Positions 11,273-18,012 of a stretch of 20,000 bases of DNA are shown piece after piece. Source of the DNA: an uncultured virus (IMG/VR IMGVR_UViG_3300047157_000144) (Duplodnaviria > Heunggongvirae > Uroviricota > Caudoviricetes); IMG/VR virus record IMGVR_UViG_3300047157_000144; one strand, written 5' to 3'. Numbering within the stretch: the first letter of the stretch is position 1; each line of letters opens with the position of its first letter. The notes beneath the pieces were generated by a model that was not told the DNA's origin, searched no databases, and saw nothing but the letters and a program-made list of their open reading frames with translations. The position numbers and the translations under genes are program-made.

Positions 11273-11421
11273 TAGTGGTTTATTATTTTAAATTCTTTAT
11301 CATTTGATAACATCCATGTTTTATCTGAATGACTATCAACATGATTCATAACTTCTGTTTGGCTTGATACATTATGTATATGTATATGACCAGTTGTAAA
11401 ATTTAGTATTGTTAATTTCAT
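11272..11421 (-). CDS. Hypothetical protein (49 aa)
   Basis: Manual ORF MKLTILNFTTGHIHIHNV...; TAATG coupling to the next gene; starts just downstream of motif copy 2. Confidence 0.65.
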   Translation of the reverse strand: MKLTILNFTTGHIHIHNVSSQTEVMNHVDSHSDKTWMLSNDKEFKIINH

Positions 11422-11429
11422 AGGTTATT

Positions 11430-11460
11430 ATTATCTAAGGTTATTCGTATTTGGTACGTA
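11430..11460 (-). promoter_or_regulatory. Repeated motif copy 2
   Basis: TACGT-ACCAAA-TACGA-N9-GATAAT. Confidence 0.75.
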
Positions 11461-11461
11461 C

Positions 11462-11701
11462 TTAATCTGATACTGTTAATTTACATTGACCATTGCAATT
11501 ATCCATTTGGTCATATAAAGCTTTGCATTCATCTTCAAGCATTTGAATATGTTCCTCCATTGCTTTGATTCTTTGCTCTTGATATGTCATGAGTGATTCC
11601 ATACTGTAGTAATTATTAGGGTTAGTATTATTGTTTTGATTATGTAAATTATATATAATAAGATCTCCATCTGTTGTTATATTAAATTTCGGGATATTCA
11701 A
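11462..11701 (-). CDS. Hypothetical protein with coiled coil (start uncertain)
   Basis: ORF track. Confidence 0.55.
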   Translation of the reverse strand: MNIPKFNITTDGDLIIYNLHNQNNNTNPNNYYSMESLMTYQEQRIKAMEEHIQMLEDECKALYDQMDNCNGQCKLTVSD

Positions 11702-11867
11702 TTTTTTGTATTTTTAGTTTACCTTTATTATTTTTTTCACTGTAATATATAGCTGTAATTTGATCGCCATACTTTTTAAGCAATTTGATTTGCTCATCAG
11801 TAAATTCAAAGTTTAAGTTGAATGAACTTACACCTTGCCTTCCATTTGTATTTAAAAACATCATCAT
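11682..11867 (-). CDS. Hypothetical protein (61 aa)
   Basis: ORF track; follows tRNA. Confidence 0.6.
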   Translation of the reverse strand: MMMFLNTNGRQGVSSFNLNFEFTDEQIKLLKKYGDQITAIYYSEKNNKGKLKIQKIEYPEI

Positions 11868-11881
11868 AATTTATAATTTAG

Positions 11882-11953
<72 letters not shown>

Positions 11954-11960
11954 AAGTTTA

Positions 11961-12131
11961 AGGAACAGAACCCCATCAGTATCTGAAGCACGCTGGAAGC
12001 TTGGGAGCCGCAACCTAAGGATTGCCTATTGGATCTTACACCCTAATATTATTAGAGCAGGATGTGGGTGATTCTGGCATTACCTTTTTATTGCACCGTT
12101 TTGTAATCAAACCGCCAGACAAATCCCGCTC
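11961..12131 (-). ncRNA. Putative structured ncRNA of unknown family
   Basis: GC-richer intergenic island with nested helices GAGCGGGAT/ATCCTGCTC, TCTGGC/GCCAGA and GCAATC/GGTTGC; G-U pairs favour the minus strand. Confidence 0.6.
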
Positions 12132-12146
12132 ATCTAAAATAAATAA

Positions 12147-12365
12147 CTAACCTAAAATAAAGTTATTTTTAATATGTTTGTTAAAGAATTTACCGATCGA
12201 ATAACTGTTTCTCATTTTTTGAAACAATCTAACTGGTATATCTTTGTATAAATAATTTGTATCGTTTTGAAATTTAACTAATAAATTTCTTTGTTCTTTG
12301 TAGTATCTCATAGATTGTATTGCTGTTGAGTCTACTGTTATAAAATCGTATTTAATTTTTCTCAT
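12147..12365 (-). CDS. KTSC domain protein
   Basis: VDSTAIQSMRY...LLVKFQNDTNYLYKDIP...SIGKFFNKHIKNNF. Confidence 0.9.
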   Translation of the reverse strand: MRKIKYDFITVDSTAIQSMRYYKEQRNLLVKFQNDTNYLYKDIPVRLFQKMRNSYSIGKFFNKHIKNNFILG

Positions 12366-12382
12366 GTTGTTTTGTTTATTAT

Positions 12383-12413
12383 ATTATCTATTTGTTATCG
12401 TATTTGTTACGTA
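12383..12413 (-). promoter_or_regulatory. Repeated motif copy 3
   Basis: TACGT-AACAAA-TACGA-N9-GATAAT; contains the stop of the 12407..12643 ORF. Confidence 0.75.
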
Positions 12414-12643
12414 CCTTTGGTTATATCTTTTCTAAAATTATCATTATTCCACATATAATCACCAAATTCCTCACGCTTTTGTAAAATCCAATCTTCTTGG
12501 TTTTTAAATTTATCTATTATTTCTATAGCTTCAATTAATGAGTCTACTGTATGAGCTTCACTACCCCATATATTTATATGTCTTGCAACATATTTATCTT
12601 TATGTACTGGGTGTTTTTTTACACTCCAGTTTTCGCCTTCCAT
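12407..12643 (-). CDS. Hypothetical protein (78 aa)
   Basis: ORF track. Confidence 0.7.
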   Translation of the reverse strand: MEGENWSVKKHPVHKDKYVARHINIWGSEAHTVDSLIEAIEIIDKFKNQEDWILQKREEFGDYMWNNDNFRKDITKGT

Positions 12644-15494: not shown

Positions 15495-15609
15495 TTGCTA
15501 TACATGCTATACATAATTAGGCCCATTCACCCGTGACTACATATCTCATTGAGATACTGTTTCTGGGTTACTAAGGGTTATCCTAATTAATGAACTTAAA
15601 AACTAACTA

Positions 15610-17137: not shown

Positions 17138-17155
17138 AATAATTGTTTTTAAGAT

Positions 17156-17206
17156 TAGAACGCGTGGCGGGAGTCGAACCCGCACCTTAGTACCGTAGCA
17201 CGCGCT
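17156..17206 (-). ncRNA. tRNA-like minihelix (acceptor stem + T-arm, no D stem or anticodon arm)
   Basis: GCGCGTG-[CTACGGTACTAAGGT]-GCGGG-TTCGACT-CCCGC-CACGCGT-T-CTA. Confidence 0.7.
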
Positions 17207-17661: not shown

Positions 17662-17694
17662 AGTATAGTATTAGTGTTATACGGTAATATTATC

Positions 17695-17945
17695 ACGACC
17701 AGACCGTGCACCACGGCGTACAGACCAGACCAGACCCACGATCACACGAAGCCAGCAACGGCAATGCACCGGAGACACACAACACACAGCAACACACGAC
17801 CAGGACCAGACACACGACAGCGTGAAACACGCAACACACAGCAGCAACACCAAACAAACACAGTAACACACGGCACTAACACACACAGCAAAAGGCAAAA
17901 CATCTGGGCAAAACCAGGGTAAACAGGGCCCCGTAGGGGTAAAAA
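17695..17945. repeat. T-depleted AC-rich low-complexity tract at the strand switch
   Basis: Only 4 T in 17761-17900; ACACACAGCA at 17782, 17834 and 17881; GACCA repeats. Confidence 0.75.
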
Positions 17946-18012
17946 AAGTCGTTCCGGTATGAGGCGGTGTCACGTAAAATGTATATATAACATTTCAGTT
18001 CTATACATCTTA

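Follow-up and report, generated by a model that had tools for sequence, protein, structure and literature searches.

A cassette of small structured RNAs beside an initiator tRNA gene is exchanged among closely related phages

The window analysed here, a stretch of 20,000 nucleotides, is AT-rich phage DNA (32% GC) whose ORF translations include a ribonucleotide reductase and a thymidylate synthase. It also carries genes for a primase-helicase, ERF, a sigma-70 region 4 protein, a pyrimidine-dimer glycosylase and GroEL. The nearest match of the primase-helicase is in Cellulophaga phage phi10:1 (43%), with other Bacteroidota phages also close, and related phage records are 59-65 kb long. Part of the stretch is present in 20 sequencing runs from 10 studies, 8 of these runs being on record as RNA, and the labelled runs that hold it are marine or aquatic. 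The source is probably a marine phage of about 60 kb with a host among the Flavobacteriaceae; GroEL-bearing phages of marine Flavobacteriaceae are on record (PMC5332604). The RNA cassette described below lies in the early region of the phage.

The minus strand of the window holds other non-coding stretches as well. One, at 17680-17950, is G/T-rich and repetitive, lies between divergent gene blocks and is possibly near a genome end or origin. At 17155-17206 there is a tRNA-like minihelix with a 7-8 bp acceptor-like stem and a perfect T arm, in which about 15 nt replace the D and anticodon arms; ARAGORN missed it and Rfam matches it in part to tmRNA, while its sequence is identical in G001 and G010, so that it offers no covariation. 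A second intergenic folded RNA, at 15515-15585, has a folding z of -2.51 and no Rfam match, and its inner hairpin is kept in G010 via several compensating changes.

The interval of interest, 11961-12131, is read on the minus strand and has a KTSC gene on one side and a tRNA-Met(CAU) on the other. The KTSC-domain protein (12147-12365, minus strand; 72 aa; Pfam PF13619, E 2.8e-16) has matches in PDB entries 7x8c and 4rgi and in the C-terminal domain of 8wiv. The tRNA gene (11881-11953, minus strand; ARAGORN, Rfam 65 bits) does not encode CCA. In its Rfam alignment positions 1 and 72 do not pair, A11 pairs with U24 and the anticodon stem has three G-C pairs; by the identity rules of initiators, the tRNA-Met(CAU) at 11953-11881 is of initiator type. 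On its 3' side lie A-rich sequence and an ORF. At least 3 alleles of this tRNA occur, with compensated anticodon and T stems (the window compared with L002 and L003).

A promoter-like motif, YACGA-N7-10-GATAAT, mostly with ACGT before it, lies at 12383-12412 on the minus strand and is repeated through the window, with 10 copies, all on the minus strand, compared with a mean of 0.14 and a maximum of 1 in 100 shuffles. The copy at 12402 stands 37 bases ahead of the KTSC start and the next downstream copy is at 11449; from its position we infer that the motif at 12402 marks a transcript start. Because this motif is present and no terminator-like site was found in 11400-12500, co-transcription of the KTSC gene, the RNA units and the tRNA-fMet, as the earlier note had proposed, is probable on sequence grounds.

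The earlier note had read the interval as a single structured RNA of about 170 nt. As a whole, the 171 nt fold no better than shuffled sequences (z +0.67 on the minus and +1.42 on the plus strand), and the separate modules defined below give z values of -1.98 (A; 8/200 shuffles as low), 0.06 (B) and 0.67 (C). Searches with Rfam 15 over 11950-12150 returned best scores of 12-14 bits (E 4.7-6.5), below the gathering score; across 11 loci only tRNAs passed, and none of the modules A, B and C had a family match. Since the region folds like its shuffles and Rfam offers no match, a comparative test was needed, and the case presented here is built on covariation rather than on energy.

Homologous loci were gathered in two ways: three IMG/VR relatives were found via the KTSC protein, and 46 metagenome loci via a 21-base pattern taken from the shared core of the relatives. 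With the window added, the set amounts to 53 placements, in which the 5' part, which we call module A, occurs as 17 distinct sequences; all homologues of the module belong to two narrow lineages. Wider searches did not extend this distribution. Pattern scans of viral contigs returned the same 3 family contigs alone (3/38, 3/6 and 3/19 matches), and 15 pattern matches in genome contigs included no full match (best 22.9 bits). The covariance model of A, R1, had no match in 7 more distant phage records, and in 151 Bacteroidota-centred genomes it gave just 24-29-bit matches in 4, which were taken as chance after inspection. Comparison by blastn with annotated phages and plasmids gave only tRNA matches or chance fragments.

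Module A is a 77-nt RNA (12055-12131, minus strand) whose 5' and 3' ends pair with each other. The complementary strings that the earlier note had listed are present on the minus strand where it placed them, and both of the 5' helices it proposed are kept: P1 (12131-12123/12063-12055), with two-sided changes at 7 of 9 pairs, and P2 (12119-12114/12078-12073), with such a change at 1 of 6 pairs, in 4 of the 17 sequences. Within these lie the pair G12120-C12066, helix P3 (12112-12109/12101-12098) and a pseudoknot missed by the earlier note, PK2 (12097-12093/12071-12067). Two-sided changes affect 3 of the 5 pairs of PK2 (U-A to C-G, G-C to C-G and A-U to C-G); taken alone, this pseudoknot yields 2 tree events where 0.42 are expected (P 0.06), and the last pair of the window's copy is mismatched (C-U). 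Overall, the 30-pair structure is paired in 96.9% of alignment cells across the 17 sequences, with two-sided changes at 11 of its 30 pairs; none of 500 shuffles scored as high and no slid register came close. On a tree made from the same alignment, compensating changes of a pair share a branch 10 times, where 1.63 are expected from randomly re-paired variable columns (0/20,000). These results bear out the earlier view that the region is a real non-coding structured one outside Rfam. Its choice of strand is likewise upheld: one-sided changes in A yield G-U pairs on the minus strand, on which the tRNA and the promoter-like motif also lie.

Not every part of A carries equal weight. A further possible pseudoknot, PK1 (12107-12103/12083-12079), is drawn from complementarity, shows no two-sided change and is broken by an A-C pair in 4 of the 17 sequences; we regard it as weak and only possible. 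P3 and its loop are invariant, but since the search pattern dictated columns 20-40 of the alignment, this carries no weight. Two elements outside that pattern are more informative: the 3' strand of P2 is invariant or compensated in 17/17 sequences, and the A-rich linker (12092-12084) is invariant from 12091 on in all 17, which suggests that the linker makes tertiary contacts. The module has no T-loop and is not tRNA-like in appearance. Its order of strands is that of the catalytic domain of RNase P (P1-P2-P3-P4...P2'-P4'-P1'), a domain also marked by the conserved CR-I and CR-V sequences; A was rejected as an RNase P RNA, having no Rfam RNase P match and a length of only 77 nt.

Downstream of A the window has two further modules. 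Module B (12018-12044, minus strand) is a 27-nt hairpin with an asymmetric internal loop, made of an outer stem (12044-12040/12022-12018) and the inner pairs 12035/12024, 12032/12025 and 12031/12026. Module C (11962-12015, minus strand), a swappable 3' domain, is a three-way junction with closing pairs 12015-12014/11963-11962, a first hairpin (12013-12008/11996-11990), a second hairpin (11985-11979/11971-11966) and kissing loops that join 12005-12002 with 11975-11972. All cells of the B fold are paired (100%; 2 of 8 pairs with two-sided change; 9 distinct sequences), and the C fold is paired in 96.6% (3 of 15 pairs with two-sided change; 0/500 shuffles as high; 6 distinct sequences), values that come from a thin set of 6-9 sequences and from folds drawn from the sequences on which they were scored. 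The window's copy of C is one base short in hairpin 1, where MAFFT misregisters it. Pattern scans for C gave 9 matches, of which 2 were family members and the others looked like chance; a strict B pattern matched in 0/201 genomes, and a looser one gave 3 matches in 5 genomes against 4 for a reversed control.

This partition differs in several respects from the 3' domain as it was drawn before. The CCCA/UGGG pairing is kept, as a loop-loop contact and not as the helix closing a junction. Two hairpins assigned to 12001-11987 and 11986-11976 have 80% of cells paired, with 30/500 shuffles as high, and give way to the C fold above. A hairpin at 12025-12010 spans the boundary between B and C: its 6 pairs, wobble pairs included, are possible in all 10 B+C loci counted, but only 1-3 of the 6 in the 13 loci with another domain after B, so that it may at most be an alternative conformer.

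A single RNA of 170 nt would have to be joined by the pseudoknot proposed between 12070-12066 and 12043-12039. All pairs of this knot form in the window and in 6 further loci. However, B supplies the 3' strand of the knot, and B is found in just 23 of 50 loci, being absent in the other 27 (2 of them truncated); within the 23, all five pairs form in 7 loci, four in 12 and three in 4, so that the knot drops to 3-4 of 5 pairs in 16/23. Both knot strands have better covarying partners, and a change of U12040 to C is compensated by 12022 inside B. We consider the single-RNA reading extremely improbable. The interval 11961-12131 instead comprises at least two structured RNA units, each folding separately, and we hold this anatomy of the cassette with high confidence.

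The distribution of the units across loci shows the cassette to be modular. The 50 loci comprise the window, the three IMG/VR relatives, G001 and 45 metagenome loci, many of them near-identical; L073 and duplicate copies were left out. The order A-tRNA occurs in 14, A-B-C in 11, A-B-short hairpin in 7, A-B-C2 in 5 and A-C3, with yet another domain, in 2, while 2 loci are truncated and A has no tRNA-Met within 340 nt in 9. C is thus present in 11/50. The nearest record, G001, in which 80% of the words of the window recur, has C replaced by C2. The tRNA is retained whether B and C are present or not, and A also where the tRNA is missing. After B there invariably come two bases, a variable domain and a conserved A-rich tail, UUAAAY (11956-11961 on the minus strand of the window), which is present after C, C2 and the short hairpin alike; given this fixed order, and since C is never seen without B, B plus its 3' domain may be a single RNA. 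Contigs from 2 of 4 RNA-labelled runs join 12043 to 11951 across a 91-base gap. The contigs of these 4 runs span coding genes too, and the same deletion of B and C is found in 14 metagenome loci; we read the join as a strain variant and not as splicing. The locus is, in sum, a cassette of small RNAs beside the initiator tRNA whose units are exchanged among close relatives.

Further structured domains occupy comparable places in related loci. C2 (L061 712-770, L056 1602-1660, L069 337-395) folds over 58 nt into a cloverleaf-like shape; of its two 7-nt loops, one is T-loop-like and the other could be taken for a CAA anticodon loop; on this modelled fold it is a possible tRNA decoy. An additional domain of about 140 nt stands ahead of the tRNA in two loci (L050 1126-1267, and L056), and the second lineage has additional hairpins after A, which end in a T-arm mimic (L067 1630-1775; also L063, L066 and L076). 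More distant relatives have other structured RNAs 0.8-1.1 kb upstream of KTSC, in a similar place (L098 3825-3968, L101 6740-6965, L099 6237-6430), two of them ending in T-arm/acceptor mimics. The three arrays folded do so strongly (z -2.2 to -4.6) and have no Rfam match; those of L098 and L101 have two units in common and differ in the third. RNAs of about 90 nt with an acceptor stem, G3-U70 and a T arm are also present (L098 3970-4062, L099 6428-6520); that of L098 has z -2.86, and neither of the pair reaches an Rfam gathering score. They look like a tmRNA reduced to its tRNA-like domain, with the reading frame missing.

The proximity of the KTSC gene raises the question of whether its product belongs with these RNAs. 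A begins 16 nt after the KTSC stop in 44/49 loci, and the domain has been described as RNA-binding (PMC7824862); in three distant relatives a different RNA array lies about 1 kb from KTSC. These points would suit a dedicated ribonucleoprotein in which KTSC binds one of the RNAs. Against this, the 44 adjoining loci are one clade, and in the other 5 of the 49, all of one phage lineage and on short contigs, A has no upstream KTSC. In 4/4 near-complete distant relatives KTSC is followed by protein genes and A was not found; moreover, PMC9503650 describes KTSC as DNA-binding. As judged from these sequences, a KTSC ribonucleoprotein is quite unlikely. The five loci and the four relatives also mean that the link between KTSC and A is not obligate and, with the 9/50 loci lacking tRNA-Met, they speak against an obligate KTSC-RNA-tRNA module.

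The same adjacency could mean that the folds work in cis, stabilising the KTSC message and the precursor of the tRNA or marking where they are processed, and do nothing once released. Knotted folds can block exonucleases, A stands 16 nt past the KTSC stop in most loci, and the stretch lacks a terminator-like site. In the second lineage, however, A lies directly behind the phage's own repeated promoter-like motif (5 loci), that is, at the 5' start of the transcript. The pairing of A's 5' end with its 3' end, the keeping of the tRNA with or without B and C, and the keeping of A without the tRNA also weigh against a cis role, which we judge unlikely.

Another way for the modules to serve the precursor would be to cut it, with module A or B-C acting as a self-cleaving ribozyme, either HDV/theta-like or of a new class. 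A is compact and pseudoknotted with invariant unpaired bases, as small ribozymes are, and theta ribozymes are tRNA-linked in phages of Bacteroidota (PMC10879173). The same paper places the theta cut at the tRNA 3' end, whereas the modules here are 5' of the tRNA. No Rfam ribozyme family matched up to E 10, and the minus strand has no hammerhead core words. The strand order of C recalls HDV, a likeness that the earlier note had raised and itself doubted for want of canonical helices, but the part at the P3/L3 position is a variable insert of a few to about 50 nt (6 variants). The middle pair of the hairpin proposed as HDV P3 is broken in 4 of 6 C sequences, and the C alignment has no conserved C before the 3' pairing strand or G-run. 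A home-made HDV descriptor, used with no positive control and positive in 1/30 shuffles, gave 0 matches in the window stretch and 11 relatives. HDV and theta features are thus missing, as the earlier doubt had it, and its suggestion of a processing element finds no counterpart among the tRNA-processing ribozymes of known type. We rate self-cleavage as improbable.

In viral contigs, the structured matches of the B pattern outside its own family were all at the 3' end of one TnpB gene family (6 of 14 matches, all of one lineage), where the omega-RNA is encoded. A set of 60 TnpB loci was gathered and reduced to 33 distinct 3' ends. The motif stem/GU(A/C)AG(A/U)C/hairpin/GCN/stem was found in 15/33 of these ends and in 0/95 upstream controls, with 0.37 expected from shuffles, a count that is partly fitted because the structure-aware pattern was refined after those ends had been viewed; a stricter first version, a regular expression, matched 6/33. 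B of the relatives matches the motif; the copy in the window, with one U too many, falls outside the strict pattern. By chance the motif arises about once per 20 kb here, and it occurs inside coding sequence of the window and in L102/L103; the latter copy was rejected as an RNA element, lying inside the primase gene. From its position we infer that the motif corresponds to stems 2/3a of the ISDra2 omega-RNA, a region that contacts the RuvC domain (PMC10097598).

This likeness, with the enrichment of the motif at TnpB ends, could make B (with its 3' domain) a functionless relic of an IS200/IS605 omega-RNA. Yet only the 27-nt element is common to the two: B comes without a TnpB gene, a recognisable transposon end or a guide, and an inspection by eye of its surroundings found no conserved omega-RNA scaffold, terminal hairpin with end pseudoknot or guide. 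The TnpB domain PF07282 was found in none of 5 records of related phages, of which 4 are 90% complete or better, with the positive control detected in 8/14 genomes. Both stems of B are kept by compensation, and a relic would leave A unexplained. We consider a relic very improbable; the internal loop of B may instead be a reusable RNA module rather than a mimic.

The reading that we favour, at a probability of about 0.45, is that the cassette encodes stable trans-acting small RNAs of the phage, comparable to rnaC and rnaD of T4, which host nucleases would release and which may serve as protein-binding decoys. One transcript from the motif at 12402 would carry KTSC, A, B-C and the tRNA-fMet. Host tRNA-processing nucleases would then free the units, with RNase P cutting at the foot of each closing helix and 3' trimming following; this is proposed because each unit has a U-rich leader, a helix start and a short U/A tail like that of the tRNA. 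On such features, release as separate stable RNAs is rather likely. Once free, the RNAs would work in trans: their compact shapes would bind host proteins and divert them, possible targets being translation-targeting or RNA-guided defence nucleases. A decoy role would account for units whose structure is strongly constrained and which are nevertheless quickly gained, lost and swapped. The sister domains look like mimics, C2 being cloverleaf-like and the distant relatives having T-arm/acceptor mimics; the decoy role itself we put forward tentatively.

A bolder reading would make the cassette an RNA-only counter-defence kit, with A a new double-pseudoknot class having its own activity, catalytic or ligand-binding, and B a free omega-RNA junction, the one gripped by TnpB/Cas12-like nucleases, that jams RNA-guided defence or host regulators. 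We think this improbable as a whole. With its 77 nt, its pseudoknot and its place outside Rfam, A may reasonably be considered for a new class of ribozyme or aptamer; an omega-RNA-like junction standing alone in a phage that lacks TnpB would suggest that RNA can inhibit RNA-guided nucleases.

Structured RNAs of phage intergenic or tRNA regions are already represented by GOLLD, ROOL and IMES (Rfam 15) and by the csRNAs of PMC10690425. The modules share this setting and match no Rfam 15 family, GOLLD, ROOL and IMES included. Supplementary files 3-6 of PMC10690425 gave no match, and a prior automatic prediction among its csRNA alignments is possible. Outside those alignments, no description of these RNAs or of a KTSC-RNA-tRNA module was found in the literature searched. 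Theta ribozymes resemble the modules in being small, pseudoknotted, near tRNA genes and in phages with predicted Bacteroidota hosts (PMC10879173). They carry G1 at the cleavage site and a catalytic C as the first base of J4/2, whereas the modules lack both the conserved 3-bp P3/L3 and a catalytic C at position 1 of J4/2.

The closest precedent is the pair of small RNAs that lie between and after tRNA genes of T4 with spacers of a few bases, rnaC (species 1) and rnaD (species 2; AF158101 70908-71171). They are described as small stable RNAs of the T4 tRNA cluster with unknown function in PMC3014915 and PMC9697503, and a convergent rnaD SNP during host adaptation is reported in PMC12685909. Such RNAs in phage tRNA operons have been known for decades without a function. 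The present locus is a natural series of presence, absence and swaps, its RNAs are short and easy to make, and their folds are backed by covariation, all of which makes the question of function testable. Like rnaC and rnaD, the modules probably sit within a tRNA transcription unit with short spacers. The A model R1, the only one compared, had no match in the rnaC/rnaD locus; rnaC ends in a T-arm-like hairpin, whereas A is pseudoknotted and has none. Unlike rnaC and rnaD, moreover, the units here are exchanged among close relatives, and they are new RNA families inside a known kind of locus.
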